In this document: positions 1,668 through 64,000 of the stretch, piece by piece
Layout: every line of letters starts with the position of its first letter
Position numbering within the stretch: position 1 is the first letter of the stretch
From: Patescibacteria group bacterium
Lineage (GTDB): Bacteria; Patescibacteriota; Patescibacteriia; Patescibacteriales; UBA12465
Direction: 5' to 3'
DNA: 64,000 bases
NCBI GenBank assembly: GCA_041650715.1
Contig: JBAZKQ010000002.1
Location: 9,568 to 73,567 of the forward strand
Notes under the pieces: generated by a model
Seen by the model: the letters and a program-made list of their open reading frames with translations, nothing else
Databases searched by the model: none
Told to the model about the DNA's origin: nothing
Made by a program: the position numbers and the translations under genes

Positions 1668-3938
1668 ATGAATTTAATAATCGTCGAATCGCCAACCAAA
1701 GCTAAAACTATTGCCAAGTTTTTAGATAAAAATTACCAGGTCGAATCTTCATTCGGCCATATTCGCGATCTGCCGGTAAGCAAAATGGGGATTGATTTGA
1801 AAAATAATTTTACGCCTGACTACGTAATCCCTGCGAAAGCTAAAAAAACTGTATCCACTTTAAAATCGGCCGCTAAAAAATCAACCGAAGTTATTCTGGC
1901 GTCTGATGAAGACCGCGAAGGAGAAGCTATTGCCTGGCATTTAGTGGAAGCCTTGGGCCTGAATATTAAAAATACCAAACGCATTGTTTTTCATGAAATT
2001 ACTAAAACAGCAATTTTAGAAGCCCTGGAACACCCCCGCCAAATTGATCAAAATATGGTTGACGCGCAACAAGCGCGCCGTATATTGGATCGTTTAGTCG
2101 GCTATGAATTATCTCCTTTTCTCTGGAAAAAGGTAGCCAAGGGCCTTTCCGCCGGCCGTGTTCAAAGCGTAGCTACTCGCTTAATAGTGGAAAGAGAACG
2201 AGAGATTCTTGATTTTAAAACCGAGGATTATTGGACCCTGTCTGCCGATTTAAGCAAAGACGGCAAAACGCAGCCCTTCACCGCCGACTTATATAAAATC
2301 AACAATAAAACCTTTAATAAACTATCTCTTAAAAAAGATAAAGCCGAGGAACTGAAAGCCAGTCTGCGAAGCTCCGACTACCAGGTAGTTAAAATTGAGA
2401 AGAAAGAAATTAATAAGAATCCGGCGGCTCCTTTCACCACTTCAACCCTACAGCAGGCGGCCAATCGTCATCTTGGCTTTAGTGCTAAGCAAACAATGAC
2501 CATTGCGCAAAAATTATACGAACAGGGTTATATTACCTACATGCGTACGGATTCCTTAAATCTTTCTCCGAAATTTATTACGGATGCTTATGATTGGTTA
2601 TTAAAAACACAGGGCGCACAGTACGCTATCAGCGGCGGACGGGCCTATAAAGGGAAAAGCAAGAACGCACAAGAAGCTCATGAAGCCGTTCGTCCGACCG
2701 AAGCGTCACTAACCCCGGAAATTCTCGCTCCGAAACTTGATAAGAACCAAGAAAGACTCTATCGTCTTATTTGGCAACGGGCCGTTTCCAGCCAAATGAC
2801 TCCGGCCCGACTGGCCGCAACCACCATCGATACCGAAACAAGTTCTGCGCAAGAAAATTATATATTTCGCGCTACCGGACAGATGTTAATCTTCCCCGGC
2901 TACCTTAAAATTTGGCCGGAAAAAACTAAAGAGCAGGAACTGCCGCCACTTCAGGAGAAAGATGATTTGGAACTTCTTGATTTGCGGGCCGACGGCCATA
3001 CCACTAATCCGCCCGCTCGCTATTCCGACGCCGGTCTGGTTAAAGAACTGGAGAAATATGACATCGGACGGCCTTCAACTTACGCGCCGACAATCAACAC
3101 TATTATTACTCGCAATTATGTCGAGCGCGATGACAATAAAAAATTGAAACCAACCGGCATCGCCTTTGTTGTTACCGATCTACTAATTAAACACTTCCCC
3201 AAGATAGTTGATTATGCTTTTACCGCTAAAATGGAAGACGATCTTGATGCCATCGCCGAAGGTGAAAAAAAATGGCAGCCGGTTATCGGTAATTTCTATG
3301 AAGACTTTCACGCTAATTTAAAAATAAAGGAAGAGGAAATTAAAAAAAGTGATATTATGCCTGAAGAAAAATCAACTGAGATTTGTGATAAATGCGGCGC
3401 CCCGATGATTATTAAAATCGGACGCTTCGGTAAATTCTTGGCTTGCAGCGGTTATCCGGATTGCAAGAATATTAAAAAATTTACCGGCGAGGGCGGAAGC
3501 TACGAAAAAAAAGAAGTAGATCCAAAAGTTCTGGAACTGCAAAAGAAGTATGACGGCGAAGTCTGCGAAAAATGCGGCTCCGCGATGAAGGTTCGAGTCG
3601 GAAAATACGGTCCTTTCTTAGCCTGCTCCGGCTACCCAAAATGTAAAAATATTAAAAACATCGCCGAGGCAAACGCGGGCGGCGTTGAAGTCCCTTGCCC
3701 GGTTTGCGGAGAAGGAAAGATTGTTAAAAAATTTAGTAAGCGAGGAGCGTTTTGGGCCTGTAATAATTACCCAAAATGTAAAAATGCGTATTGGGGAGAG
3801 CCGACCGGAAAAGATTGTCCCGATTGTAGTGCCTTGCTCGTTCATGACACCAAATCAGGAAAAATAAAATGCAGTAATAAAGAATGCGGTTATATAGAAA
3901 AAGAGAAAAAAGCGAAAGCTAAAGAAGAATCGGTTTAA
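1668..3938 (+). CDS. topA: DNA topoisomerase I
   Basis: TOPRIM N-terminus (IVESPTKAKTI, SDEDREGE) and catalytic Tyr region (GYITYMRTDS). Several C-terminal CxxC...CxxC zinc ribbons. Confidence 0.95.
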   Translation: MNLIIVESPTKAKTIAKFLDKNYQVESSFGHIRDLPVSKMGIDLKNNFTPDYVIPAKAKKTVSTLKSAAKKSTEVILASDEDREGEAIAWHLVEALGLNIKNTKRIVFHEITKTAILEALEHPRQIDQNMVDAQQARRILDRLVGYELSPFLWKKVAKGLSAGRVQSVATRLIVEREREILDFKTEDYWTLSADLSKDGKTQPFTADLYKINNKTFNKLSLKKDKAEELKASLRSSDYQVVKIEKKEINKNPAAPFTTSTLQQAANRHLGFSAKQTMTIAQKLYEQGYITYMRTDSLNLSPKFITDAYDWLLKTQGAQYAISGGRAYKGKSKNAQEAHEAVRPTEASLTPEILAPKLDKNQERLYRLIWQRAVSSQMTPARLAATTIDTETSSAQENYIFRATGQMLIFPGYLKIWPEKTKEQELPPLQEKDDLELLDLRADGHTTNPPARYSDAGLVKELEKYDIGRPSTYAPTINTIITRNYVERDDNKKLKPTGIAFVVTDLLIKHFPKIVDYAFTAKMEDDLDAIAEGEKKWQPVIGNFYEDFHANLKIKEEEIKKSDIMPEEKSTEICDKCGAPMIIKIGRFGKFLACSGYPDCKNIKKFTGEGGSYEKKEVDPKVLELQKKYDGEVCEKCGSAMKVRVGKYGPFLACSGYPKCKNIKNIAEANAGGVEVPCPVCGEGKIVKKFSKRGAFWACNNYPKCKNAYWGEPTGKDCPDCSALLVHDTKSGKIKCSNKECGYIEKEKKAKAKEESV

Positions 3939-6789: not shown

Positions 6790-7845
6790 TTAAAACTGCT
6801 CTATAAATTTAAGGTCACCGCTATTAAATAAGCGCACGTCATTAATATTATATTTAAGCATCGCTAAGCGATTAAGTCCGAAGCCGAAAGCTAAACCGGA
6901 ATAGACTTCCGGGTCAATCCCGCCCGCTCGTAAAACATCGGGATGGATTAAGCCGGCGCCGACAATTTCGAGCCAGCCGGTATGCTTACAAACGCGGCAG
7001 CCTTTGCCCTCACAGAGGAAGCAGGTATACTCGCCGTTATTACCAGGCTCAACAAAAGGAAAAAATTTCGGCCGCATGCGCAGCTCGGTATTGGGACCAA
7101 ATAATTTTTTGCCGACTATTTCCAATAAGCTTTTTAAATTAGCAAAGTTTATATCCTTGCCGACCATAATACCCTCCACCTGATAAAATGTGTGTTCATG
7201 GCGCGCATCCGTCGCTTCATTACGAAAGCAGCGCCCCGGGATTATCGCCTTTAAGGGCGCGCCATATTTTTGCATTAATCTAATCTGTACGGGCGAGGTT
7301 TGGGTGCGCATTACTAAATCATATTGTCCCTCTTTATTTTTCGAATCAATATAAAAAGTGTCTTGCATGTCGCGGGCGGGATGAAAGGGGGAGACATTAA
7401 GGGCCGTAAAATTATAATAATCACTTTCCAGCTCAGGCCCGTCACCCACCATAAAACCGAGCGAAGTAAATAAATCTTCTAATTCGTTTTGGACAAGCGT
7501 AATCGGATTCAGGTGGCCAGTCGCAAATTTTTCTCCCGGGAGGGTAACATCCACAAAATCATTCTTCTTGCCATAGTTTTCAAGAGTCCGGCTCATTTCC
7601 TGAAATTTGCTTTGCATTTCGCCTTTAACCGTATTAGCCAGTTCGCCTAACTCTTTTTTCAGTTCTAAACTAAGATCCTTAAGACCGTGCATAATCTCGC
7701 TCATTTCTCCCTTACGCGAGAGATATTTTAATTCCAAATCGCGCAACTCGTCGCTATCTTTGGCTTTTTGCAGTTGCTCCAGAAACTCAGCTCGTATTTT
7801 TTCAATTTTGTTCTTCATATTATTAGTTCCGTTTTTCGGAAACAT
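6790..7845 (-). CDS. pheS: Phenylalanine--tRNA ligase alpha subunit
   Basis: Class II aaRS motifs (GRCFRNEATDARHEHTFYQVEG, GLAFGFGLNRL). The true start may be the Met 9 codons in. Confidence 0.9.
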   Translation of the reverse strand: MFPKNGTNNMKNKIEKIRAEFLEQLQKAKDSDELRDLELKYLSRKGEMSEIMHGLKDLSLELKKELGELANTVKGEMQSKFQEMSRTLENYGKKNDFVDVTLPGEKFATGHLNPITLVQNELEDLFTSLGFMVGDGPELESDYYNFTALNVSPFHPARDMQDTFYIDSKNKEGQYDLVMRTQTSPVQIRLMQKYGAPLKAIIPGRCFRNEATDARHEHTFYQVEGIMVGKDINFANLKSLLEIVGKKLFGPNTELRMRPKFFPFVEPGNNGEYTCFLCEGKGCRVCKHTGWLEIVGAGLIHPDVLRAGGIDPEVYSGLAFGFGLNRLAMLKYNINDVRLFNSGDLKFIEQF

Positions 7846-53508: not shown

Positions 53509-54126
53509 TTATGGTTTATAAGTGATGCCGAGTTTGAGCAGAGCTTTCCCGTCACAGTACCAGCTATAGCCAGCACTGGCGAATATATTCCATTTTGGGG
53601 TGAGCGGTTGCTTGTATTTGAAATCAACCAGCGGTCCCCAGGAATCATAATAAAGTACAGCGCCAGTCGCCGTAAACCGCGAATAGCTAAAATCCAACGA
53701 CTGCCAGAAAAAACGAAATCCCCAGTTAAAGGGTTGGACTTTTTCTCCCGGTATGCCCGCTGAAACGCCAGACCAGGTCATAGCGGTTATGGAAAATTTT
53801 TCTCTTTGGATGGGGGCGACAAAACCCATAATTCCCATAACTGGTACGTTTAAGAAGTACTCGAAGGAGGGACCAACGCTGATGCGCTTACCTATCCCCT
53901 TAAGATAGACAATGTACATATCACTTGCGCTTATTGATATGTTGATGACGTCATTTCCCCTGGCGAAATTCGCTTCAGCGAATACGCCATTAGATAATGG
54001 CCCTTCACCACTGGAAAGGGAAATGGAGGATAGTTTAATTTCTTTTTTTGCTTCTGTTTGAGAAAAAGCGGACAATGTCTGTAAAAGGAGGATGGCTGAC
54101 GCCAAAAGCAGGTTGATTCTTTTCAT
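53509..54126 (-). CDS. Secreted protein with beta-barrel-like alternating pattern
   Basis: Signal peptide MKRINLLLASAILLLQTLSAFS. Aromatic- and Gly-rich alternating strands through to the C-terminal LKLGITYKP. Confidence 0.4.
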   Translation of the reverse strand: MKRINLLLASAILLLQTLSAFSQTEAKKEIKLSSISLSSGEGPLSNGVFAEANFARGNDVINISISASDMYIVYLKGIGKRISVGPSFEYFLNVPVMGIMGFVAPIQREKFSITAMTWSGVSAGIPGEKVQPFNWGFRFFWQSLDFSYSRFTATGAVLYYDSWGPLVDFKYKQPLTPKWNIFASAGYSWYCDGKALLKLGITYKP

Positions 54127-54339
54127 GGATTATTGTTTGTTTATTGGTTAATATTCAGTTTTCAAAGAATTAAAAAATATATCATTTCATTTAATTTTTG
54201 TCAAGAGTTAAGAAATAAAATCCTATTAAATTGGCTAATAAAGCTCACCTTGATTTTTTCCCTAAAAATGTTAATATAAAGTCAATTAAAGAAATATTAA
54301 AAGGCGAGCCAAAAGCTCGCTTCTAATTGCTAAAAGACT

Positions 54340-55650
54340 ATGCAAATCACCAAAAAAGATTTAGAAAAATCACAAATTGAATTAACCGTGGAATTAAGCA
54401 CGGAAGAGTTTGCGCCTTATATTGAAAAAGGTGCGCTTAAGGTTGCCGAAGAAGTAAAAATCGAGGGTTTCCGTAAAGGTAAAGTTCCTCTGGAGATTTT
54501 AAAGCAAAAAATTGGCGAAATGACGATTTTGGAGGAAGCCGCTAATATTGCAATCCGAAAAACAATCGACGAAGCGGTCGAAAAAAATACGATGGAGCGC
54601 CAGGCAATCGGCCAACCCCAAGTTAATATTACTAAGTTGGCGCCGAATAATCCTTTAGAATATAAAGTTATTGTTTCACTTTTACCGACGATAGCTTTAG
54701 GAAAATATAAGGGCTTAAACTTAAAAGCGGAAGAAGCAAAAATTGATGATAAGGAATTAGAAAAAGCGTTAAATGATTTACGCGAAATGCGCGCTCAGGA
54801 AGTTCTGGTTGAACGCGGTGCCGGGGCGGGAGATAAAATAACGATTGACGTCAGAATGTCTTTGGACAAAGTTCCGCTTGAAGATGGCGATCATAAAGAA
54901 TTGGCGATAATTTTGGGTAAGGATTATTTTGTGCCCGGCTTTGATGATAAAATGATGGGTATAAAACAGGACGAAGAGAGAAATTTTGAATTGCTTTATC
55001 CGGAAGATCATCATCAAAAAAATATTGCCGGCAAGATGGTTGAATTTAATGTTAAAGTCAAAGGTGTCTACGAAAGAAAGCTCTCGGAATTTAATGATGA
55101 GTTTGCCGGTTTCTTCCGTTTGAAAAATATGGAAGAACTAAAAACTAATTTAAAGGAAAGTTTACTCCAGGAGAAAAAACACAATGTCGACATGCGCAAT
55201 GAGTCCGAGTTGATCGGTAAAATTGTGGATGACACTAAATTCGGCGATTTACCGGACACGATTATTGAAAGCGAAAGCCGCAACATGATGATGGAGCTCG
55301 AACAGAGCGTTGTGCGCCAAGGCGGAAAATTTGAAGATTATTTGGGCCACCTTAAAAAAACTAAGGAGCAATTAATCTTGGAAATGATGCCGAACGCCGT
55401 GAAGCGCGTCAAGTCGGCGCTTGTCATTCGTGAGCTCGCGATAGTTGAAAAAATTGCCCCGGCCCATGAAGATATCCATAAAAAAATTGATGAGCTTGAA
55501 GCCCAGTATAAAGATAACGCGGATATCATCAAAATGATTCACGAACCTGATTATCATAATTCTTTAAATAACATTTTAACTAACGAGAAAGTAATCGCGA
55601 AATTAAAGGAATGGAATTATGCCCCAACTGGCGATAAACAAAAAAGCTAA
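54340..55650 (+). CDS. tig: Trigger factor
   Basis: N-terminal ribosome-binding motif (GFRKGKVP), a central FKBP-like region and a C-terminal arm domain. Confidence 0.9.
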   Translation: MQITKKDLEKSQIELTVELSTEEFAPYIEKGALKVAEEVKIEGFRKGKVPLEILKQKIGEMTILEEAANIAIRKTIDEAVEKNTMERQAIGQPQVNITKLAPNNPLEYKVIVSLLPTIALGKYKGLNLKAEEAKIDDKELEKALNDLREMRAQEVLVERGAGAGDKITIDVRMSLDKVPLEDGDHKELAIILGKDYFVPGFDDKMMGIKQDEERNFELLYPEDHHQKNIAGKMVEFNVKVKGVYERKLSEFNDEFAGFFRLKNMEELKTNLKESLLQEKKHNVDMRNESELIGKIVDDTKFGDLPDTIIESESRNMMMELEQSVVRQGGKFEDYLGHLKKTKEQLILEMMPNAVKRVKSALVIRELAIVEKIAPAHEDIHKKIDELEAQYKDNADIIKMIHEPDYHNSLNNILTNEKVIAKLKEWNYAPTGDKQKS

Positions 55651-56077
55651 CTTTGACTACCAGATTCAAGATAAATATGAAGCGGGCTTGGTTTTATTTG
55701 GCCATGAAGTTAAGGCGGTACGCGCCGGGCAGGTAAGTCTTAAAGGAAGTTTCATTAGTATTCGTACGAAAAACGGCCATACGGAATTATACTTAGTTAA
55801 TTGTCAGATATCTCCCTATAAAAGCGCCGGTCCGATGCCCGACTATAATCAAATGCGGGAGCGTAAATTGCTTTTAAAGCGTCAGGAAATTGACCATTTA
55901 TTAGGCAAGAAACAGACCGAGGGCTTGACACTAATCCCCCTAAAAATATATACTAATCATAGTTTTTTGAAGTTGGAATTTGCTATCGCGAAAGGTAAGA
56001 AAAAGTATGACAAACGAGAAACTATCAAAAAAAGAGATATCGACCGCCGCTTAAGATCGTTAACAAAGAGAAGTTAA
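55619..56077 (+). CDS. smpB: SsrA-binding protein SmpB
   Basis: Conserved N-terminus (NKKANFDYQIQDKYEAGLVLFGHEVKAVR) and a basic C-terminal tail. tmRNA follows 20 nt downstream. Confidence 0.9.
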   Translation: MPQLAINKKANFDYQIQDKYEAGLVLFGHEVKAVRAGQVSLKGSFISIRTKNGHTELYLVNCQISPYKSAGPMPDYNQMRERKLLLKRQEIDHLLGKKQTEGLTLIPLKIYTNHSFLKLEFAIAKGKKKYDKRETIKKRDIDRRLRSLTKRS

Positions 56078-56097
56078 GCAAAGAAAAAGGCTGATTA

Positions 56098-56483
56098 GGG
56101 GATGCCAGGCATCGACAGTCGGAGCTTTTTCTAAATATTCAAAACGCGCCTAGCTAATCGCGTTAAACTGGCTAAAAAAATACAAATGCCAAAACGGCAA
56201 GAGCATTCACTTGGTTAACTCCGAGCTATGCTCCAGTTATGGCCTAATTAATAAGGCTATAACCATCGGCGGATCGTGAGTCTTCATAACGGTCAACCGG
56301 TGTCATTCAATTGAAGATAGATATTATTTGCGCCTGACGAGTAATATCGAATCAAAATCGGGATCGCTTCAATCGCTTTTGTGTGGTTTTTGATGATTGA
56401 AGTTAAAAAAACGAAATCACTCTATTTTTGTAAATGTATTTAGGAAAACCGATTGGACATGGGTTCAAATCCCATCATCTCCA
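56098..56483 (+). ncRNA. ssrA: tmRNA (SsrA)
   Basis: - The 5' ggggatg pairs with the 3' catctcc, including the G3-U wobble (Ala identity).
- T-arm atggg-ttcaaat-cccat.
- Candidate tag reading frame GCC at 56188 to TAA at 56245-56247, encoding AKTARAFTWLTPSYAPVMA.
- Lies directly after smpB. Confidence 0.85.
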
Positions 56484-56487
56484 CATT

Positions 56488-56571
56488 GCCGCGGTGGCGG
56501 AACTGGTAGACGCGCTGGACTTAAAATCCAGTTGTAGCGATACAGTGCGGGTTCGATTCCCGCCCGCGGCA
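56488..56571 (+). tRNA. tRNA-Leu with anticodon UAA (class II, long variable arm)
   Basis: Acceptor gccgcgg/ccgcggc, anticodon stem ctgga/tccag, loop cttaaaa, variable arm tgta-gcga-taca, T-arm gcggg-ttcgatt-cccgc. Begins 4 nt after the tmRNA. Confidence 0.9.
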
Positions 56572-56594
56572 CTAGTAAGCAAGTTAAACGATAC

Positions 56595-56666
56595 GCGGGT
56601 ATCGTATAGTGGTTATTATGCGACCTTGCCAAGGTCGAGAGACGGGTTCGATTCCCGTTACCCGCT
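56595..56666 (+). tRNA. tRNA-Gly with anticodon GCC
   Basis: Acceptor gcgggta/tacccgc, anticodon stem cgacc/ggtcg, loop ttgccaa, T-arm acggg-ttcgatt-cccgt. Confidence 0.85.
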
Positions 56667-56673
56667 CAATAAC

Positions 56674-56702
56674 AAAAAAGACTCCTCTTGGAGTCTTTTT
56701 TG
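56674..56702 (+). terminator. Intrinsic terminator after the tmRNA/tRNA-Leu/tRNA-Gly cluster
   Basis: agactcc (56679-56685) pairs with ggagtct (56690-56696), followed by a T-run. Confidence 0.8.
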
Positions 56703-56711
56703 TTATTGATA

Positions 56712-56888
56712 GGAAGAAGAACGGGAATCGAACAGGTTGGAAGCGAGATATGAGCCGAGACGGAAGGCGAGGCGAGTAATCGAGCGTCGGACGAATATCT
56801 GGGGGATATTCGGATGCCAACCCTGGACAAGTGAGCGAGGCGCAATTCTGGCGCCGAGTGAGCGCGAGGATGGGGATTAGTAAGCCAG
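56712..56888. other. G+C-rich structured non-coding element B, tRNA-adjacent
   Basis: Visibly G+C-rich in an A+T-rich context.
- 56720-56733 (aacgggaatcgaac) is the exact reverse complement of the tRNA-Gly T-arm at 56646-56659.
- Hairpins: cgaatatc-tgggg-gatattcg (about 56801-56821), ggcgc-aattctg-gcgcc (about 56839-56855), and caggttgg..ccaaccctg.
- Shares AGTGAGCGC and AGCGAGG with element A. Confidence 0.5.
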
Positions 56889-57097
56889 ATAAATAGAGCT
56901 TGAAAGTACTTTTTATTATTTAAAGCGTGAATTACAGTAGCAAAGCCGGCTTGATTCATACGTTTTATATTTACCTAAATTTGTATAATTACGTTTCATA
57001 AATCATGCTTGGCATTGCATTAAGATTGAATTTAATTTTGTAAAATATTATATAGTTATTGTCAAGATTTATTTAAAGGAAGCTCTGGTGTAAACTT

Positions 57098-57712
57098 ATG
57101 ATAATAATTAAAATACTAAATATGCCGCCCGAAAATTTCTGTAATTTTTTAAATATTCCTTTTTATTTGAAATATGAATTTTGGTTGACCATCGCTAGTA
57201 TTGCATTTGCTGGATTTGCGTTATTCGAAACAATGAAATTAAGAAAGGAATCGCAAAGGCAAAATATACTCGCCAAACAGCCATATCTATCCCTTAAACT
57301 AAAAAAAGATGAAGAAAATAAAAGCTCTAAGCAGATACTTGTAAATAATTCTCTGAACCCTGCCTTTAATATATTTGTTCTTTTTGGAAGTGCTGATAAA
57401 TATTTAATCACAAAAGAAGGTGGCGTTATTAGCTCGCTGGGCCCAAACGAAAGAAGGCAGATTAATGATGATGAGTTAACCACGATAAATAGATCTGCTA
57501 TTTTGGAAAGAATTAAATTTTTGAATAAACTTATAAATAAGTTTGAAACTAAAAGCACAAGTTTTCACGCTATTTTCTATGAAGATATATTCGGAAATAA
57601 AATGTATTCAGTTGGCTTGCCTTCATTGATCATGGAAAATGGGTATAATGGTTTTTTTAATGTAGGGTATGTTGAGGGTGCGAGGACAAAAAATAGAACT
57701 GTTATCATATAA
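57098..57712 (+). CDS. Hypothetical membrane-anchored protein
   Basis: One TM helix (WLTIASIAFAGFALF) followed by a roughly 150-aa soluble domain of unknown family. Very A+T-rich. The start is uncertain; the Met at 57122 is possible. Confidence 0.4.
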   Translation: MIIIKILNMPPENFCNFLNIPFYLKYEFWLTIASIAFAGFALFETMKLRKESQRQNILAKQPYLSLKLKKDEENKSSKQILVNNSLNPAFNIFVLFGSADKYLITKEGGVISSLGPNERRQINDDELTTINRSAILERIKFLNKLINKFETKSTSFHAIFYEDIFGNKMYSVGLPSLIMENGYNGFFNVGYVEGARTKNRTVII

Positions 57713-57725
57713 GTATGCTAAATAA

Positions 57726-58403
57726 ATGAGTGTTGCACTAAAGTTTAAAGAATTTCAAAAAGAATCAAAAAGGGCCCAATATGGGATAGGCCATGAGTTT
57801 GGTCTGATTTTATCATTAATTGATTTTGGGAATGTTGATTATTGGTATGAATTTGATAATTTTAATCGAGATGGAAAAGCCTTAAAGGATAACGAAAAGT
57901 TAAATGTTGACCTAGAATATTTAAAACAATTCTGTGATTTATTTTCTTATAATTCAAAATTTTATTTTGGTTTGGATTCTAAGAAAAAAGAATCAATACA
58001 TTTAATAGCTTCAGCTAGAAATTTTTTTGGTAAAACGAATGTTGTAACAAAAGAAATACAATATATACAACATTATTTAAATGATTTAGAAAAAAAGGAG
58101 AATACTCGCTCGGTAACTTACGATATTCATGGACAATATATAAAAATACCAAAGTGCAATTTTGATGTAGAAATCTGCATTGATGCCATTAGATTGGCTG
58201 ATAAATATGACACCCTATGTTTATTTTCCGGAGACGCTGACTTTACGGCGTTGTTAAGATTTTTAAAATATCAAAAGAAGAAAATAATTTTGATTAAAGG
58301 CGGGCGCGTGCTTCATAGTTTAGTAAAAGCCTCCGATTTAGTCATTAATGCTCAGGAAATAAAAAATGAATTAGTCTTTATAAAGCAAAAATCCCGCCGA
58401 TAG
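57726..58403 (+). CDS. NYN/LabA-like (PIN-related) ribonuclease-domain protein
   Basis: NYN motif order: LIDFGNVDYW, then KCNFDVEICIDAIRLA, then LFSGDADFTALLRFLKYQKKKIILI. Confidence 0.6.
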   Translation: MSVALKFKEFQKESKRAQYGIGHEFGLILSLIDFGNVDYWYEFDNFNRDGKALKDNEKLNVDLEYLKQFCDLFSYNSKFYFGLDSKKKESIHLIASARNFFGKTNVVTKEIQYIQHYLNDLEKKENTRSVTYDIHGQYIKIPKCNFDVEICIDAIRLADKYDTLCLFSGDADFTALLRFLKYQKKKIILIKGGRVLHSLVKASDLVINAQEIKNELVFIKQKSRR

Positions 58404-58568
58404 GCGAGATTTGCGGATCTCGGACCCGAATCCACGGGCAGGGCAATAAAAATTTATTGCAATTAAAATATACAATAATAAATTTGTATTGTCAAGGAAA
58501 TCATAATTTTTTTATCCGCTCAAGATATTGCCGCTTTTAGAATAACAGTCCAAAATTCTATCGGGTAA

Positions 58569-59573
58569 CTACTTATTAGTTTTAATTAACCTTTCAGTAT
58601 TTAGTTTTTTTATATAGGCATCATAGCGTCTGTATGATTTTTCTTTTGCAATTAGGCTCCTTTTTTCTTTTACATTTGTATTACTATCTTTTAATTTTTC
58701 TTTTACAAAACTTCTTTTTCTAAGCGTATTTGCGCCAGCAATGACTTTATTCCTACAAAGCTTTAGGCCTAAATGTTCTACATTTCCTGTCGTATATGAT
58801 GAAATATTTTTTTTGTCGTTTAATAAAAGCGAATGGTTTGTGTCGTAGTTTTTTAAAATACTCTCAATTTTATCATAAACCTCATTCATTAAATCCTCAC
58901 TAACGTTATATGCGCTAATTCCGATGTCATCAACATATATGGTTAATCTTGGGTTATGGCCCTTAAGCATTTTTTTAACAGCCCAGCTAACTCTTAAAAA
59001 TAAATCTAAATTACACAATGTTGCAAGCCTGGTTGATGTGGCAAACCCCCGAGCAATGGTTTTTCTTTTTGAATTACTATTTTTTTGTCCGACTGACACG
59101 CAACACAAATTAGCTATTAATTTAGAAGCTTTTTTGCTACACCCACATTTATTATTTAGAAGGATTTCAATACGTTTGCTGTCATTTTGTTCAAAAAAAC
59201 GTCTAATGTCTGCCCCAAGCTTAATTCTTTTTCGATGGCCACCAAGCAAACTAAGACTTGCCTGTATGTGATTTTTTTTCGAGACTCCGCCAAAAATAAA
59301 ATCGGGTAATATTTTATCAGTGGGGGCTAAAACTTTTTTATTAATTAAATTTAATAATTTACCGAGAGGGTTGCCATATGAGGTTCTAACGTATTTTTCA
59401 TTTTTAAAATCAGATGCTTTTATGTTGTCTCTCCAATATTTGTCATAATTAGCCAAAACGTCATTAATTAAAATTAGCGCCTCACCATGGGTAAAATTAC
59501 TTCCTGATATTCTTTTTGCTAATTCATTCTTGCTTCTGATATTTATATTGGGATAACGATTATTTTCTGGCAT
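58569..59573 (-). CDS. Stand-alone reverse transcriptase (compact, unclassified)
   Basis: - RT motif 1: LGKLLNLINKKVLAP.
- Motif 2: FGGVSKKNHIQAS...LGADIRRFFEQN.
- Motifs 3/4: ARGFATSTRLATLCNLDL.
- Motif 5: YVDD, encoded at 58926-58937 (checked by hand).
- Motifs 6/7: LLLNDKKN...VEHLGLKL.
- Lys-rich helical tail. No fused effector, maturase or endonuclease domain. Confidence 0.8.
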   Translation of the reverse strand: MPENNRYPNINIRSKNELAKRISGSNFTHGEALILINDVLANYDKYWRDNIKASDFKNEKYVRTSYGNPLGKLLNLINKKVLAPTDKILPDFIFGGVSKKNHIQASLSLLGGHRKRIKLGADIRRFFEQNDSKRIEILLNNKCGCSKKASKLIANLCCVSVGQKNSNSKRKTIARGFATSTRLATLCNLDLFLRVSWAVKKMLKGHNPRLTIYVDDIGISAYNVSEDLMNEVYDKIESILKNYDTNHSLLLNDKKNISSYTTGNVEHLGLKLCRNKVIAGANTLRKRSFVKEKLKDSNTNVKEKRSLIAKEKSYRRYDAYIKKLNTERLIKTNK

Positions 59574-59889
59574 ATTTTTTTAAATTTTTCGCTTTTTTGC
59601 TTATTAGTGATATTTGCAATTTTTCACCTAATTTTATCATTTCTTCTTCTATTTTAGTTAAGCTGATTTTACTAATATCAATATTTCCATATAAAAAAGG
59701 GGTGATCGAATTAGGATGCACCTCAAGTTTGTCAGCTAAATTCAATATAAATTTTTTAGATATTTCTTTTTGTCCAGATTCTATCATCGAAACCAATACC
59801 GTAGAAACAGAAAGAGCGTTCGCAAGCTCCTCTTGAGTCAATCCACTATTTTTTCTAATTTCTTTTAATAATTCAGGGAATGATACCAT
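59560..59889 (-). CDS. XRE-family helix-turn-helix protein
   Basis: HTH_3 pattern LKEIRKNSGLTQEELANALSVSTVLVSMIESGQKEIS. Its 3' end overlaps the RT start codon by 14 nt. Confidence 0.8.
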   Translation of the reverse strand: MVSFPELLKEIRKNSGLTQEELANALSVSTVLVSMIESGQKEISKKFILNLADKLEVHPNSITPFLYGNIDISKISLTKIEEEMIKLGEKLQISLISKKAKNLKKYARK

Positions 59890-59896
59890 AAAGAGA

Positions 59897-60052
59897 TTAC
59901 AGGGCGACTATTTTATGAGGTCTACGATGATATGGGCAATCTGCAAAAGTATTTGCATTATTACACATAATCTTCGCGTGTTTTTCATAAATAGCCGCCC
60001 CTAAAATTGAAGGGCACAAATTAAAACTTTTAACTTTGGCTTTCATAATCAT
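59897..60052 (-). CDS. Possible 51-aa Cys/His-containing small ORF, first gene of the RT operon (not in the ORF track)
   Basis: Hand translation gives MIMKAKVKSFNLCPSILGAAIYEKHAKIMCNNANTFADCPYHRRPHKIVAL. The stop lies 7 nt upstream of the HTH ATG. No convincing Shine-Dalgarno sequence. Confidence 0.3.
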   Translation of the reverse strand: MIMKAKVKSFNLCPSILGAAIYEKHAKIMCNNANTFADCPYHRRPHKIVAL

Positions 60053-60454
60053 ATGGGTTTAGTTATTATTTGAATAATAAGGGACCTTTATAAAAATGAT
60101 TACCTAATTTTCTTGTGACCATCATCACCGTGGTACCCTCCAACAATAAACTTTGATGATCAAAAGATTATCAAGCAATCACTGTCAGAACATGAATGTT
60201 AGCTGTATATTATTTATAAATAATTAATATATGCGCTAAAAGTTCTGCGCTAGAGCAAATGTAGCATTAGTCTTATTAGCGCAAAGCATTGAGCATGGCG
60301 TTATAATAAGATGACACATTAATTTACTCTCCCGGAAAAAATCTTTCCTTTTAAGATAGCAAAGAGAAAGAGACAGATATCAAGATGGATATCTAAAATA
60401 ACGGTTAAGCGTAGTCACAAAATTTTAATTTGTTAATATACTATCCTAGTTAAT

Positions 60455-60483
60455 ATATTATACTTTTTGTATAAGTATGTCAA
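60455..60483 (-). promoter_or_regulatory. Near-consensus promoter reading toward the RT operon
   Basis: On the minus strand, TTGACA (60483-60478) is followed either by a 17-nt spacer and TAATAT (60460-60455), or by a 15-nt spacer and TATAAT (60462-60457). Confidence 0.5.
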
Positions 60484-60637
60484 GGGTGTCCATGGGGTGT
60501 GCTCCTGGCAAGCACACCAAACTCCCCAATATTAAAGATTGAGTTAAATTACCCCCTTCCTATATTGCCTCCCCACAAAAAATTGCGCCGCCATTGTGAT
60601 CGAAAAGTGATAAATTTCTTTTTTTGTGATAATAGTC

Positions 60638-60667
60638 AAAAACTACCCTAACCATAAGGTAGTTTTT
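60638..60667. terminator. Symmetric hairpin with flanking A-run and T-run (bidirectional terminator-like)
   Basis: aaaaactacc (60638-60647) pairs with ggtagttttt (60658-60667). The loop is ctaaccataa. Confidence 0.55.
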
Positions 60668-60780
60668 TGTACCCCCAAAACCCTATTTCCTTGAATCTTA
60701 TTAATAGTTGACTAAAATAGAGCTATTATGATATATTTTTTTGTCATACAAATAATGTCGAACCTTTAAAATTTATAGCC

Positions 60781-61194
60781 ATGAAAAGCAAAACTGTATT
60801 ACTAATTGAACCCAATCGGAGTATTCGGGAAAACCTGAAAAACTCCTTGGAGGCCATCGGCGATAAAGTGTTTATTGCCAAGGACGAAGATGAAGCATTG
60901 GGTGTTTTAAAAGGGAATGAAATAGATGTAATTATAATTGAGCCTCTTTTAAATACTGATTTTTTGAGTAATAAAAAAGAGTTCATAAGAAATGTTTTGT
61001 CTGGTGGCACTGGTGCCGTATTAATAAGCAACATCAGGACAGCTTATAGGAAAAAGTTTGATACAATATTCTACACGGTAGTTTCCGCAAGCAAACTTTT
61101 CGCTATTAGCCCCGAATTAGAAGATGTTATTTACATTCGCAAGCCGCAGTCCACTGAATTCATAATTCTGGTAGTCCATAGTGAGGGAGGGTAG
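60781..61194 (+). CDS. Stand-alone receiver-like (pseudo-REC) domain protein
   Basis: CheY-like layout: VLLIEPN replaces the acidic DD pocket. DVIIIEPLL puts Glu where the phospho-acceptor Asp normally sits. The conserved Lys-Pro is present (IRKP). Upstream promoter TTGACT-N18-TATATT with an extended TG. Confidence 0.5.
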   Translation: MKSKTVLLIEPNRSIRENLKNSLEAIGDKVFIAKDEDEALGVLKGNEIDVIIIEPLLNTDFLSNKKEFIRNVLSGGTGAVLISNIRTAYRKKFDTIFYTVVSASKLFAISPELEDVIYIRKPQSTEFIILVVHSEGG

Positions 61195-61266
61195 TCAATC
61201 GAATCAAAGAAACAAATAGGAAACCAAAATGACAGGATTCGTTCAAACAACCATAAAAACTTAACC

Positions 61267-61776
61267 ATGAAAGAGCCAGTTAATTCACCAAAACATTTCC
61301 ACGAATCAATTGTGGGCGTAATCGAAAAATGCAAGGACACGGACGCGCCATTATTGATCGACCTGATTACCGGTACAAAAATTGTAAATAATTACGATGC
61401 CATCGTTTGGGCCTTGTCAAAAAAGGCTGCGGTATTTGGAAAAGCTTACATAGACCTGGTTAATAGTGTCATTCTGCAAAAAACAAATGATTATCATCTA
61501 TTTATGAATGACGCCGATAACCTCGAACAAGCATTAGAATTTGGCTTTGAATTTCTCCCCCTTGGATCGGAATATTTAGGACCAAGAAGGAAAATCCGAT
61601 TAATGCGAAATTGTCTGGTTACGGGTTCTCCAATGGTGGCTGAAATTGCAGTAATTGATGCTGAAGCGAATGATCGGCGTATAGTGCTTACTGCCGCCTG
61701 GGGAAAAGATGATAAAATTTATCGCTTCCAAAAAAATTGGCCGGGCGATATCAAAGACTGGTCTGATAAGTGGTAG
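61267..61776 (+). CDS. Hypothetical protein (169 aa), co-oriented with the REC-like gene
   Basis: No recognisable family. Followed by terminator ggggaac..gttcctc plus T-run at about 61812-61840. Confidence 0.45.
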   Translation: MKEPVNSPKHFHESIVGVIEKCKDTDAPLLIDLITGTKIVNNYDAIVWALSKKAAVFGKAYIDLVNSVILQKTNDYHLFMNDADNLEQALEFGFEFLPLGSEYLGPRRKIRLMRNCLVTGSPMVAEIAVIDAEANDRRIVLTAAWGKDDKIYRFQKNWPGDIKDWSDKW

Positions 61777-61850
61777 CAATTTGCACCAACAATAAAAAAG
61801 ATTATAAATCGAAGGGGAACTAATAAAGTTCCTCTTTTTTAATAGCTTAT

Positions 61851-61877
61851 AAAAAACGCCATTTTTGGTGGCGTTTG
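61851..61877 (-). terminator. Intrinsic terminator, copy 1 of an identical 27-nt repeat
   Basis: aaaaaacgccatttttggtggcgtttg. On the minus strand the stem is aaacgcca/tggcgttt followed by a T-run. An identical copy lies at 62296-62322. Confidence 0.8.
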
Positions 61878-61903
61878 TTGTGTGTCTAAGGAGACGACTG
61901 TTT

Positions 61904-62191
61904 TTAGGTTTCTAAATAATCAGCCAGAGCGTCTTTTGAGATTTTGCTTAAGCAAAGTCCAACTGTCTGGCCCTTGGTGGCGGAGTTGACCTCATCATGA
62001 AAGAACTCAATTCTTTTAATGTGTTCTTTGATTGGTGTTTTATAACCGTTTTCGATTTTGACGTCATCTCCTTTAGAGATGGTGCCATTAGTGACTTCAC
62101 CTACGGCCATAAGTCCGCAGGTCTCTTGCTGTACTTGGTACACGGTAACCAGAGAGCCGTCTGTAGTGACCATAATAAATTTGAGATTCAT
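61904..62191 (-). CDS. Stand-alone EF-Tu domain-II-like beta-barrel protein, paralog 1
   Basis: 95 aa. CGLMAVGEVTNGTISKGDDVKI...IKRIEFFHDEVNSATKGQTVGLCL follows the EF-Tu/IF2/SelB domain II pattern (G.v..G.v..G.i..Gd.v.i ... i.sie.....v..A..G..vgl.l). Confidence 0.55.
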   Translation of the reverse strand: MNLKFIMVTTDGSLVTVYQVQQETCGLMAVGEVTNGTISKGDDVKIENGYKTPIKEHIKRIEFFHDEVNSATKGQTVGLCLSKISKDALADYLET

Positions 62192-62232
62192 GGGACTTTC
62201 TTTTTTTTAAATATTTATAAAGTTCTAACTAC

Positions 62233-62261
62233 AAATTAACAAAAATGGTGGTACCTGGCAA
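62233..62261 (-). promoter_or_regulatory. Promoter of paralog 1
   Basis: On the minus strand, TTGCCA (62261-62256), a 17-nt spacer, then TAATTT (62238-62233). Confidence 0.5.
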
Positions 62262-62295
62262 GCGACCCGACTATTATTTTTAGAAAAGTATAAAT

Positions 62296-62322
62296 AAAAA
62301 ACGCCATTTTTGGTGGCGTTTG
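62296..62322 (-). terminator. Intrinsic terminator, copy 2 of the identical 27-nt repeat
   Basis: The same 27-mer as at 61851-61877. Confidence 0.8.
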
Positions 62323-62343
62323 CTTTCTGCACTCGCGATGAGC

Positions 62344-62640
62344 CTACTGACTTTTATTAATTAAATAATCAATCAGAGCACTTTTAGAAGTTTGGCCTAA
62401 ACAGACTCCGACAAGTTCTCCTTGGATAGCGCCTCGGACTTCCTCGTGGTTTTTTTCAATTCTTTTTAGCCCATCGTAGATTGGCATCTTGTCGGCATTC
62501 TGGATACTGATCATTTCTCCCTTACTGAGACCTCCGCTTGTGATTTTGCCCACAGCTACAAGACCGCATGGTTTTTGCATTATTTGGTCAACATCCATGA
62601 CTCCTCCGCTTCCGGAAATTAGCTTAAATTTTAGCTTCAT
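62344..62640 (-). CDS. Stand-alone EF-Tu domain-II-like beta-barrel protein, paralog 2
   Basis: 98 aa and alignable end to end with 61904-62191. Compare MKLKF/MNLKF, CGLVAVGKITSGGLSKGEMISI, RIEKNHEEVRGAIQGELVGVCL and ALIDYL/ALADYL. Confidence 0.55.
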   Translation of the reverse strand: MKLKFKLISGSGGVMDVDQIMQKPCGLVAVGKITSGGLSKGEMISIQNADKMPIYDGLKRIEKNHEEVRGAIQGELVGVCLGQTSKSALIDYLINKSQ

Positions 62641-62683
62641 CGCTCAATGTATTTTTGGTTAATATTAGGAATGAACTAAATGT

Positions 62684-62712
62684 AAATTAACAAAAAAGAT
62701 GAAATATTGCAA
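62684..62712 (-). promoter_or_regulatory. Promoter of paralog 2
   Basis: On the minus strand, TTGCAA (62712-62707), a 17-nt spacer, then TAATTT (62689-62684). The geometry and the TTTTTGTTAATTT core match the paralog 1 promoter. Confidence 0.5.
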
Positions 62713-62752
62713 GAACCAAACTTCCCCTTTTAAATTATGATATAATTAATCT

Positions 62753-63136
62753 ATGAATATCCAATTACAAAATCTCGTAAAAGAATTATTAAGCCTCCAT
62801 AAACTATTGCTTGACGGGCAGCGGGCGGAATATGAATTAAAAAATGGAGTAGTCTTAAATAATAATGATTATTTTAATTTGGTCGTTAACCATTCCGACT
62901 TTAAGTGGTTGCGCGCGCTTTCGGAAGTGATTGCTATAATTGATGAGGAATCGGAACAAGGCGAAGATAATAAAGATAAAGTCAGCGCGCTCTTAATGAA
63001 TTTAGAAAAAATGCTAAGGGCCGAAGGGTCTGAAGATGAGTTTTCCCTTAAGTTTCGCTCGGCTTTGGCCGGCAGTGATATTTTAGCAGACCGGAAAGAA
63101 TTGGTACTGACAAAAATTAAAGAATTGCTTCGTTAA
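62753..63136 (+). CDS. Hypothetical acidic helical protein (127 aa)
   Basis: No recognisable family. A terminator-like caggctcccacctg plus T-run follows. Confidence 0.4.
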   Translation: MNIQLQNLVKELLSLHKLLLDGQRAEYELKNGVVLNNNDYFNLVVNHSDFKWLRALSEVIAIIDEESEQGEDNKDKVSALLMNLEKMLRAEGSEDEFSLKFRSALAGSDILADRKELVLTKIKELLR

Positions 63137-63218
63137 TTTCAAAATAAGCAAAACAAAAAGCAGGCTCCCACCTGTTTTTTTGTATTGAAAAGCTTTTGGG
63201 ATATTACTCTGAAAAAGT

Positions 63219-63659
63219 TTAACGCCGGACGAAGATTGTTTCACCATTGTCGGTGAGCGGAGCGGAAACGGTTACTTGTCCGGAGTCATCCTTAGAAATC
63301 ATATAAGTAATCCCGTTCGTCGAACCGCCGGCCGGATCTATCGGCAGGACGCTTAAATATTTTTCGTTAGCGGTTAAAACGGAGAGATTAATTAGTCCGG
63401 CGCAGTTGCCTCCCGTTTTGCAGATTTCAGTCGAGGTGGCGGTAATAGTTCGGGGAAGCGTACCGTGATTATCAGCTGCATATTGTGAAACCGCGTCAAG
63501 AATTCGGCTGACATCGACGCGCCTTTGCATATTGTTTTTGTCGCCCAGCTTGTCGCCGGGGTTAAAAGCAAAAACCGCCACGCCCGTTAAAATAAAAAGG
63601 GCAGTTATAACCAGTAGGACCTCCAAAAGGGCAAAGCCCCGATAATTAGAATTTTTCAT
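63219..63659 (-). CDS. Type IV pilin-like protein (prepilin N-terminal methylation motif)
   Basis: Start trimmed to MKNSNYRGFALLEVLLVITALFIL at 63659. This gives the class III signal G|FxLxE followed by a hydrophobic helix. Confidence 0.75.
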   Translation of the reverse strand: MKNSNYRGFALLEVLLVITALFILTGVAVFAFNPGDKLGDKNNMQRRVDVSRILDAVSQYAADNHGTLPRTITATSTEICKTGGNCAGLINLSVLTANEKYLSVLPIDPAGGSTNGITYMISKDDSGQVTVSAPLTDNGETIFVRR

Positions 63660-63818
63660 AGGATTAAGATTAAAGTATGGGGATTGAACCCACTTAATAT
63701 TATAACACACCATATTACCTACTTATTGACTAAATTACTAAAATATGTTATATTTAAGTTAGACATTGCGTCATATATTGATTAAAATAGAGGAGACACA
63801 TATTAATCATTTGAGCCC

Positions 63819-64000
63819 ATGACTAAGGATAAGAAACACAATCAAAAATCGCTTGAACCGGAGTGGCAGGATCGGCTTTTATTAGAAAGTCTGGTCGCCC
63901 AGATTTTACCCGAGCTTATTACTTCCGAACCGGCCAAGGCCGATCAAGTTATTGCCGCCCTGAAAAATGATAAATTAAGTTTAGCTGATTTTTTAATTAC
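63819..64000 (+). CDS. 5' fragment of an ORF running off the window, possibly a PilB/GspE-type secretion ATPase N-terminus
   Basis: The ATG at 63819 is open to the window end: MTKDKKHNQKSLEPEWQDRLLLESLVAQILPELITSEPAKADQVIAALKNDKLSLADFLI. The function guess rests on pilin adjacency and an N-terminal-domain-like pattern only. Confidence 0.35.
   Translation, partial: MTKDKKHNQKSLEPEWQDRLLLESLVAQILPELITSEPAKADQVIAALKNDKLSLADFLI

Follow-up and report, generated by a model that had tools for sequence, protein, structure and literature searches.

Which kind of reverse transcriptase (RT) system is encoded when a small, free-standing RT is found in a Patescibacterium, coupled to a helix-turn-helix (HTH) protein and to an open reading frame (ORF) of only 51 codons? 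The question is raised by a locus in a stretch of 64,000 nucleotides (nt), hereafter the window, taken from a Patescibacteria group bacterium (assembly GCA_041650715.1, contig JBAZKQ010000002.1, positions 9,568 to 73,567 of the forward strand). An earlier note on this DNA had described the RT as compact and free-standing, within a tightly packed unit of three cistrons, a description borne out by the analysis reported here, and had considered that the system fits no familiar class, an HTH-associated retron type having to be excluded first. We propose instead, with a probability of about 0.68, that the unit is a Type VI-like retron and belongs to a divergent lineage found mainly in Patescibacteria. 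Its three genes are the following.

58569..59573, minus strand: RT, 334 amino acids (aa), catalytic YVDD encoded at 58926-58937; RT_VI profile, E = 6.5e-19
59560..59889, minus strand: XRE/Cro-type HTH protein, 109 aa; HTH_3 domain, 5.7e-12; HTH_VI profile, 2.6e-12
59897..60052, minus strand: small protein (SP) ORF, 51 codons; presumed toxic effector

According to the ORF listing, the RT gene starts 14 nt before the end of the HTH gene and a gap of 7 nt separates the stop codon of the SP ORF from the ATG of the HTH gene, exactly as had been read at first.

The RT and its family

The catalytic YVDD of the RT corresponds to residues 213-216, at the coordinates given by the earlier note, and the GFATST segment to residues 176-181. 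The Lys-rich helical tail, also noticed at that time, forms one long helix in the AlphaFold2 model of the protein, the last 49 residues being 35% Lys/Arg. This model has a mean predicted local distance difference test score (pLDDT) of 93.5, and its best 15 fold matches in the PDB (Foldseek) are all retron RTs, namely Ec86, Eco2, Eco8, Eco7, Ec83 and Ec78, with template-modelling (TM) scores of 0.6-0.67 and a best E-value of 5e-12; the G2L4, diversity-generating retroelement (DGR), group II intron, DRT2, DRT9 and Abi-P2 RTs rank after them. In sequence, the best matches among solved structures are with the Ec86 RT, and the only other solved RT to be matched, more weakly, is a single group II intron maturase. 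The Pfam RVT_1 domain is matched with 23 bits, below its gathering score; the top PADLOC model is RT_VI (66 bits), the second is RT_IV (36 bits) and the seven best models all represent retron types. By fold and by sequence alike, the enzyme is closest to the retron RTs.

Homologues of the RT number 280 at E <= 1e-5, and a profile search covering 1.84 billion representative proteins delimits the family as a discrete one: 71 representatives are found at E <= 1e-30, and full-length members score 145-523 bits whereas the next proteins score at most 78 bits. RT_VI is matched by 31 of the 31 aligned members and gives the best E-value of any model (1.2e-30). The UG17, UG26 and Drt3a profiles match fewer members and far more weakly (best E-values of 1e-10 to 1e-12, against 1e-30 for RT_VI), and the models of CRISPR-associated RTs also match fewer members, and more weakly, than RT_VI. 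An assignment to the defence-associated (DRT/UG) or abortive infection (Abi) RTs was rejected on the weakness of the UG17, UG26 and Drt3a profiles and on the low position of DRT2, DRT9 and Abi-P2 in the fold list. No NCBIfam model matches the RT; the members of the family are mostly deposited as hypothetical proteins, and a protein identical to that of the window is deposited under the same description for a Patescibacteria metagenome-assembled genome.

The ten proteins scanned among those nearest to the family from outside are all canonical RT_VI proteins (189-299 bits), which makes the canonical Type VI retron RT, of clade 3, the nearest outgroup among sequenced proteins. With hhalign, the family aligns with two canonical Type VI RTs at a probability of ~98%, the identity being 26% with the Levybacteria enzyme and 26-28% across both. 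The opinion that the system fits no familiar class therefore has to be given up, since RT_VI and HTH_VI are the top PADLOC models of its two larger proteins and since canonical Type VI RTs are the nearest outside relatives. As for the HTH-associated retron type which was to be excluded first, this class is the one that was found, together with a matching non-coding RNA (ncRNA); what stands of the first proposal is the distinctness of an RT without NAXXH and VTG, which apparently does not nest within the canonical clade and forms a discrete divergent lineage, so that the refutation is incomplete.

The HTH protein and the small protein

The comparison was extended to 67 related loci from species-representative genomes, 55 of which have enough upstream DNA. 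Their hosts are nearly all Patescibacteria (Saccharibacteria, Paceibacterota, Magasanik-, Collier-, Harrison-, Wolfe-, Gottesman-, Doudna- and Moraniibacteria), a few loci lying on probably mis-binned contigs. The HTH query is matched by tblastn in 67 of the fetched loci, and the order SP-HTH-RT recurs with the same spacing in ~50 of the 55: the end of the small ORF is separated by 2-19 nt, or by 35 nt in one locus, from an HTH gene encoding ~107 aa, which usually overlaps the RT start. SP-HTH-RT is the canonical order of Type VI retrons (Garcia-Rodriguez et al., bioRxiv 10.64898/2026.04.27.721009; Mestre et al. 2020, PMC7736814), and the position of an SP gene directly upstream of the HTH gene, which is part of the definition of this type, is found in the window as well as in the related loci.

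The same definition includes a Cro/C1-type HTH protein of 91-110 aa, encoded upstream of the RT or overlapping it, and the protein of the window agrees with it in size and position. This protein carries an HTH_3 domain (Pfam, 46 bits), its top PADLOC model is HTH_VI, its HTH region is 31% identical to that of a canonical Type VI HTH protein, and it gives weak matches with the antitoxin families HipB, HigA and MqsA. It is presumed to be at once the antitoxin, the repressor and the partner of the RT.

The SP ORF is open in all of the 55 loci, with 47-61 codons when the internal ATG is chosen, while the two other frames are closed in every locus, with a mean of 3.1 and 5.8 stops. In the loci inspected, the gaps that the nucleotide alignment introduces within the ORF are multiples of three, and in several Saccharibacteria loci it is preceded by the Shine-Dalgarno sequence AAGGAG. 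The frame kept open in every locus and the gaps in threes argue that the small ORF is translated. Its product matches no NCBIfam model and belongs, so far as this is testable, to no named SP cluster; the toxicity that we ascribe to it would follow from the analogy with Retron-Vpa2 and Retron-Sen3.

A structured leader RNA that runs into the SP ORF

The earlier note had seen no matching ncRNA, but a structured and covarying leader is present upstream of the three genes and runs into the small ORF. Its elements are listed below in the direction of transcription.

60053..60447, minus strand: leader, msr-msd-like non-coding part of a hybrid RNA, ~390 nt (from fold and covariation)
60419..60433, minus strand: 5' arm of helix LR, conserved core 60432-60425, pairing with 60024-60017 in SP codons 10-12
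60412..60420, minus strand: DR1, a1-like segment, direct repeat of b1 and complementary to b2
60401..60405, minus strand: 5' arm of helix Px (ACCGU), pairing with 60131-60127 and extending DR1:b2 across an internal loop
60374..60395, minus strand: hairpin H1 (UAGAUAUC...GAUAUCUG), msr-like stem-loop; stem base 90.9% paired, upper part covarying
60342..60371, minus strand: hairpin H2, from a constrained fold; a stem is visible at the same place in other loci
60186..60334, minus strand: variable region, candidate msd, with long hairpins 60334-60248 and 60247-60186 (from the fold)
60095..60183, minus strand: 3' domain, helix P3 (60181-60174 with 60104-60097) around hairpin b1:b2
60002-59994 with 59908-59900, minus strand: SP stem, extending to 1 nt before the SP stop codon
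59951-59937, minus strand: hairpin inside SP, from helix counting

The 566 nt between the promoter and the HTH start have a minimum-free-energy fold of -155 kcal/mol (z = -6.5). When five close loci are compared, the leader is conserved and its centre is variable. On the alignment of 41 loci, RNAalifold predicts eight helices in which 86.6% of the cells are paired, against 29-45% when the partners are slid with respect to each other; compensatory changes are found in 42 of the 46 pairs, with 336 compensatory cells against 48-91 after sliding, and none of 500 shuffles reached the observed values.

The helix LR joins the leader to codons 10-12 of SP and shows changes on both sides in eight of its eight pairs, 87.5% of the cells being paired. 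In the 3' domain, compensatory changes affect all eight pairs of P3 and all ten pairs of b1:b2 (60164-60155 with 60123-60114; 90.4% of cells paired). DR1 and b1 are covarying 7-nt direct repeats and are both complementary to b2, so that an alternative helix DR1:b2 can be drawn; 68.7% of its cells are paired, against 22-45% after sliding, with 66 compensatory cells. Together with Px, this alternative helix closes the leader around H1, H2 and the two long variable hairpins, in the manner of the a1/a2 stem of a retron. The covariation of Px (types TCGA/TCGA, CCGU/ACGG and UUUGA/UCAAA) was read by eye, this helix being left out of the counts made on the MAFFT alignment because of a register shift of 2 columns between subgroups. 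The hairpin b1:b2 is better supported than the competing DR1:b2 closure, and the b1:b2 conformer is the predicted ground state in the window (~-152 against ~-139 kcal/mol, the gap of roughly 13 being approximate).

The pairings were also examined by a cis-versus-trans duplex test which does not depend on the alignment and in which each segment is paired either with the partner of its own locus or with those of other loci. The median percentiles of the cis duplexes are 0.97 for LR, 0.95 for DR1:b2, 0.95 for P3 and 1.00 for b1:b2, with the SP stem within 0.95-1.0; Px obtains a moderate 0.82, and three negative controls 0.42-0.54. LR, the SP stem and the internal hairpin all involve the SP codons, and the folded RNA therefore includes the coding sequence of SP; this sequence and the ncRNA would share one structured transcript, as the definition of Type VI has it.

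The segment 60186..60334 is the part of the leader that varies most in length and in sequence among the relatives, and by analogy with the msd of retrons and with Retron-Vpa2 it could be the template of reverse transcription. Rfam scans, permissive over 56000-62000 and focused on the leader, returned only a transfer-messenger RNA (tmRNA) and two transfer RNAs (tRNAs), with no match to a retron (msr), an intron or any other family in the leader.

Putative promoter, operator and terminator

Three further elements delimit the unit.

60455..60483, minus strand: sigma-70-like promoter TTGACA-17-TAATAT, 10/12 consensus matches; predicted to drive the whole unit
60459..60473, symmetrical: palindrome TATAC-N5-GTATA, extending over spacer and -10 box of the promoter; putative HTH-protein operator
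58389..58412, minus strand: intrinsic-terminator-like hairpin with a T run, 10 pairs of which 5 are G-C; likely end of the operon

Transcription would start near 60447 and, since a single promoter is seen, the leader and SP would be carried by a single transcript. The strict promoter pattern is present in about half of the 55 loci, and in most of the others a -35 box is visible beside the palindrome. The palindrome itself is found at the same promoter position in 44 of the 55 loci, and TATAC-N5-GTATA has this sole match in the 64-kb window, where 0.05 would be expected by chance; we infer that it is the operator of the HTH protein. The Type VI retron of a Candidatus Levybacteria locus (L073) also has a perfect palindrome, TAAAATATTTTA, in the spacer of its promoter (6810-6838, minus strand), and autoregulation by the HTH protein may therefore be general in Type VI retrons. 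Such an operator is not mentioned in the two preprints on Type VI systems (bioRxiv 10.1101/2025.10.22.683967 and bioRxiv 10.64898/2026.04.27.721009).

At the other end of the unit, in the intergenic region between the RT and the neighbouring NYN gene (58389-58495), the minus strand carries a site strongly resembling a promoter (TTGACA-17-TATATT, 11/12); three hairpins and the terminator also lie there, and the 86-nt fold gives z = -3.1. The next gene follows the RT stop after only ~68 nt in the closest relative (L068), which leaves no room for such an element. This region may be the 3' end of the operon with a shared terminator.

Genomic surroundings of the module

The module lies in an island whose G+C content is 0.306 (56900-60780), against 0.407 upstream, and which starts ~230 nt downstream of smpB, tmRNA, tRNA-Leu and tRNA-Gly. 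The earlier note had suspected a defence-type RT in an A+T-rich island of a genome of the candidate phyla radiation (CPR), that is of Patescibacteria, and these figures confirm the setting. No integrase or mobility gene is found in the island, in the ORF list or with Pfam.

The neighbouring genes of the module are not conserved across the related loci, and in three close relatives it is flanked by restriction-modification and PIN genes. The NYN nuclease (57726-58403), a 204-aa ORF, a response-regulator-like ORF and a 169-aa ORF were considered as parts of the system and rejected, being without homologues in the other loci; for this reason the NYN nuclease, the 204-aa ORF and the ORFs beyond 60781 are regarded as cargo of the island. 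The NYN-domain (PIN-like) nuclease gene, on the plus strand, is convergent with the RT gene, and in the closest relative a PIN_12/PIN_8 gene (2122-3132, minus strand) is also convergent with it, without detectable homology to the NYN gene of the window. As these convergent genes are not homologous to each other and neither is conserved across the loci, they are probably a coincidental cargo of defence islands.

Other features of the region deserve to be recorded. The tag peptide encoded by the tmRNA (56098-56484), AKTARAFTWLTPSYAPVMA, is unusual and lacks the common ALAA ending; the tmRNA is directly followed by tRNA-Leu(taa) and tRNA-Gly(gcc). Between the terminator of tRNA-Gly and the A+T-rich island, ~180 nt (56710-56890) appear to be G+C-rich and contain on the minus strand an inverted 14-nt copy of the T-arm of tRNA-Gly (GTTCGATTCCCGTT); a promoter-like site (57066-57041, minus strand) is directed into this stretch, which gives neither an Rfam match nor an ARAGORN call and whose fold (z = -4.0) owes most of its stability to the terminator. 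It could be a decayed tRNA, an att remnant or an unknown RNA. On the other side of the module, two paralogous genes in tandem, encoding 95 and 98 aa (61904-62191 and 62344-62640, minus strand) are each followed by a terminator-like repeat of 36 nt (61849-61884 and 62294-62329), the two copies being nearly identical (92%). Finally, a 164-aa ORF (63219-63713, minus strand) begins with a hydrophobic segment which, judged by eye, is of the prepilin type (GFALLEVLLVITALFILTG).

Proposed model and alternatives

The model that we put forward is built on the analogy with Retron-Vpa2 and Retron-Sen3. The RT and the HTH protein would bind the hybrid RNA, and the RT would use part of the variable hairpins of the leader as template for single-stranded DNA, while the SP toxin would be held in check by the RNA structure, by the HTH protein or by both. 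Phage infection would raise or stabilise the complementary DNA (cDNA), change its fate, or disable the HTH protein; SP would then be made or released and the infected cell would stop growing, in an abortive infection. The HTH protein would probably also repress its own promoter by means of the TATAC-N5-GTATA palindrome. An additional RNA gate is conceivable, in which DR1 and b1 would compete for b2: the b1:b2 hairpin would hide b2, and the alternative DR1:b2 helix, with Px, would close the leader like the a1/a2 stem of a retron.

The two characterised systems differ in the level at which the toxin is controlled. In Vpa2 the control is translational and depends on the multicopy single-stranded DNA (msDNA), the cDNA copy of one 7-nt repeat being proposed to pair with the other repeat and thereby to free the start of SP (Zhang et al., bioRxiv 10.1101/2025.10.22.683967), whereas in Sen3 the msDNA is constitutive and the control is post-translational (Garcia-Rodriguez et al., bioRxiv 10.64898/2026.04.27.721009). 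Control of either type is conceivable for the system of the window, and the toxicity of SP, its neutralisation by the HTH protein and the need of the RT for defence are established for Vpa2 and Sen3 only.

Several observations weigh against the assignment to the Type VI kind. The RT of the window scores 66 bits on RT_VI where canonical members score 189-310 bits, and the HTH_VI alignment is limited to the N-terminal 60 residues of the HTH protein (model positions 4-63 of 92). Between SP and the two canonical SPs fetched, no similarity in sequence can be detected; the SPs of the family are short and rather polar (mean grand average of hydropathy, GRAVY, -0.35), more so than the canonical ones, and the AlphaFold2 model of SP from the single sequence, with a pLDDT of 48.7, is unusable. 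In the leader, neither the branching (priming) G nor the limits of the template can be assigned, and thermodynamic calculation predicts no clear reduction in the accessibility of the SP Shine-Dalgarno sequence and AUG. The triggers of Vpa2 and Sen3 work through lambda Red and RecBCD; comparable partners may or may not exist in Patescibacteria. The motifs that define retron RTs are NAXXH, in region X, and VTG, in region Y, two regions tied to initiation and to the recognition of msr, the G of VTG being its most conserved residue (Mestre et al. 2020, PMC7736814), and the RTs of the clade have neither motif. Their region X reads NH(I/V)QAAxxLLG, with an invariant Leu (L109) in place of His, and their region Y reads EHLG, of which only the Gly is retained. 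At the same positions, the two canonical reference RTs have kept NAKKH/VTG and NAKNH/TTG. The HLG which had been read by eye in place of VTG is thus correct: it occupies residues 267-269, hhalign pairs EHLG with RTTG of the Levybacteria Type VI RT, H267 and L268 are conserved in at least 90% of the family members and G269 is invariant, and since only the Gly of VTG is kept across the clade the divergence is real. The RTs are moreover distinguished by a conserved N-terminal extension (RYPxIxIRSKNELAKRIS), an insertion of 10 residues before motif 4 and the Lys-rich C-terminal helix.

How far should this divergence be carried? As NAXXH and VTG are replaced, the RT may recognise or prime its template unlike all characterised retrons, and the system might then be a retron type of its own, proper to Patescibacteria, in which the device made of DR1, b1 and b2, adjoining a helix that clamps the coding sequence of the toxin, would gate the priming helix and control both reverse transcription and the translation of the toxin. 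We consider this stronger proposal possible but doubtful.

Slightly less probable, in our opinion, is that the RT derives from retrons and serves in defence but has ceased to work as a retron enzyme: instead of a 2'-5' branched msDNA, it would make DNA from another primer (a 3'-OH, a protein, or de novo), or it would be an RNA-binding scaffold for an SP/HTH toxin-antitoxin pair. The changes of regions X and Y throughout the clade and the discrete score gap to canonical Type VI RTs speak in this sense, as do the absence of detectable DNA for six Type VI retrons in E. coli and the ability of the Sen3 HTH-SP module to work independently of the RT and ncRNA (bioRxiv 10.64898/2026.04.27.721009). 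Against it, the family as a whole has conserved the catalytic YVDD together with every core residue listed as invariant, which argues for a working polymerase; the G of VTG is kept; and the leader retains both a long-range closure of the a1/a2 kind with compensatory changes and the variable hairpin region typical of msd.

It is improbable, to a much greater degree, that the unit is an addiction or stabilisation module, a type II-like SP/HTH toxin-antitoxin pair with an RT added, which would maintain the A+T-rich island beside tmRNA and tRNA-Gly rather than defend against phages. The low-G+C island does adjoin tmRNA and tRNA genes, the HTH protein has its weak matches in HipB, HigA and MqsA, and a promoter palindrome is typical of autoregulated toxin-antitoxin operons; but the island is devoid of integrase or mobility genes, the module recurs in many unrelated contexts and stands beside restriction-modification genes in three close relatives, its characterised relatives are phage-defence systems, and a toxin-antitoxin role alone would explain neither the conserved active RT nor the template-like RNA.

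That the RT could be the remnant or variant of another retroelement, a DGR or a decayed group II intron, is practically discounted, for its similarity to these RTs is generic (they appear from ~rank 21 in the fold list) and both classes rank below the retron RTs in the fold and hidden Markov model comparisons; no direct repeat longer than 44 nt, and none with the character of a template repeat/variable repeat pair, exists in 54000-64000, the 10 kb searched, no Rfam intron match is obtained, Pfam finds RVT_1 alone, without a maturase or endonuclease domain, and the accessory genes are conserved with intact ORFs in ~50 loci, so that the absence of such a pair and of group II intron RNA features, first judged by eye, is upheld.

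Implications

The Type VI retron interpretation extends to ultra-small, episymbiotic Patescibacteria a design in which the toxin gene is embedded in the template RNA of the RT. It does not establish a new principle, the class and its logic being already published, but the lineage appears to be undescribed: in the literature library searched, no paper links retrons with Patescibacteria, and the RTs of the family bear no NCBIfam name and are mostly annotated as hypothetical proteins, an annotation gap. Because both recognition motifs of retrons are absent from it, this lineage can reveal which features of the RT are truly required. Furthermore, more than 40 diverged loci provide a map of the RNA supported by covariation, with a long-range clamp, competing helices and a promoter palindrome, from which specific, testable mutations can be derived for the proposed msDNA-dependent translational switch. 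The compactness of the RT (334 aa) may also interest the developers of tools.

Comparison with known systems

The best structural match of the window RT is the RT of retron Ec86 (Eco1; PDB 7v9x and 7v9u; E = 5e-12, TM ~0.63-0.67), with a sequence identity of ~18%. Unlike the system of the window, Ec86 has NAXXH and VTG, a nucleoside deoxyribosyltransferase-like effector and a classic msr-msd without embedded ORF. A CC motif before motif 4 is common to the two enzymes.

The Candidatus Levybacteria retron (Mestre-729, L073), the one Type VI retron catalogued for a CPR host, was located through the ncRNA printed in the supplement of Khan et al. Like the system of the window, it has a CPR host, a small ORF, an HTH gene and an RT gene on one strand, a highly structured leader with SP (z = -7.3) and a promoter with a palindrome in its spacer. 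It is nevertheless canonical and falls outside the clade of the window, with 255 bits on RT_VI, 85 bits on HTH_VI, the motifs NAKNH and TTG and a helical small ORF of 65 aa. The ncRNA predicted by Khan et al. for Mestre-729 has no similarity with any of the fetched loci. A second canonical Type VI locus, on the Citrobacter freundii plasmid NZ_CP137189.1 (L072), scores 310 bits on RT_VI and 118 bits on HTH_VI. It contains before the HTH gene a hydrophobic small ORF of 52 aa (1749-1907, plus strand), which is absent from the PLSDB gene table, known to be incomplete, and it sits among MazEF and ParDE toxin-antitoxin pairs.

With Retron-Sen3 and the cl2075 lineage (Garcia-Rodriguez et al., bioRxiv 10.64898/2026.04.27.721009), the system of the window shares the SP-HTH-RT order with an HTH gene upstream of the RT or overlapping it, a conserved ncRNA that contains a variable internal stem-loop and lies within ~300-400 nt of the SP start, and a long-range pairing between the ncRNA and the SP region, which in Sen3 takes the form of an extended transcript with IR1-IR2. 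It differs in its SP, of 51 aa, polar and unrelated in sequence, whereas the Sen3 SPs are helical, of 75-79 aa, and form a defined cluster, and in its host, the Sen3 and cl2075 lineages being Beta- and Gammaproteobacterial. The RT_VI score of the window RT is 66 bits against 189-310 bits for the Type VI RTs scored, among which Sen3 does not figure.

Also among the closest systems is Retron-Vpa2, which is of Type VI and comes from Vibrio parahaemolyticus (Zhang et al., bioRxiv 10.1101/2025.10.22.683967). In both systems the order is structured ncRNA, SP, HTH and RT, the SP coding sequence (55 aa in Vpa2, 51 aa in the window) lies within one structured hybrid RNA (hyRNA) with long-range inverted repeats, and 7-nt direct repeats are present, which are conserved in the hyRNAs of Type VI. 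The host of the present system is a Patescibacterium, the system is known from its sequence alone, and its RT, extended at both the N and the C terminus, has neither NAXXH nor VTG. The long-range partner is situated after the ORF in Vpa2 and inside SP codons 10-12 in the window. Finally, the repeats of Type VI are conserved in sequence, whereas those of the window covary and are both complementary to a third segment; the two arrangements are related rather than identical.

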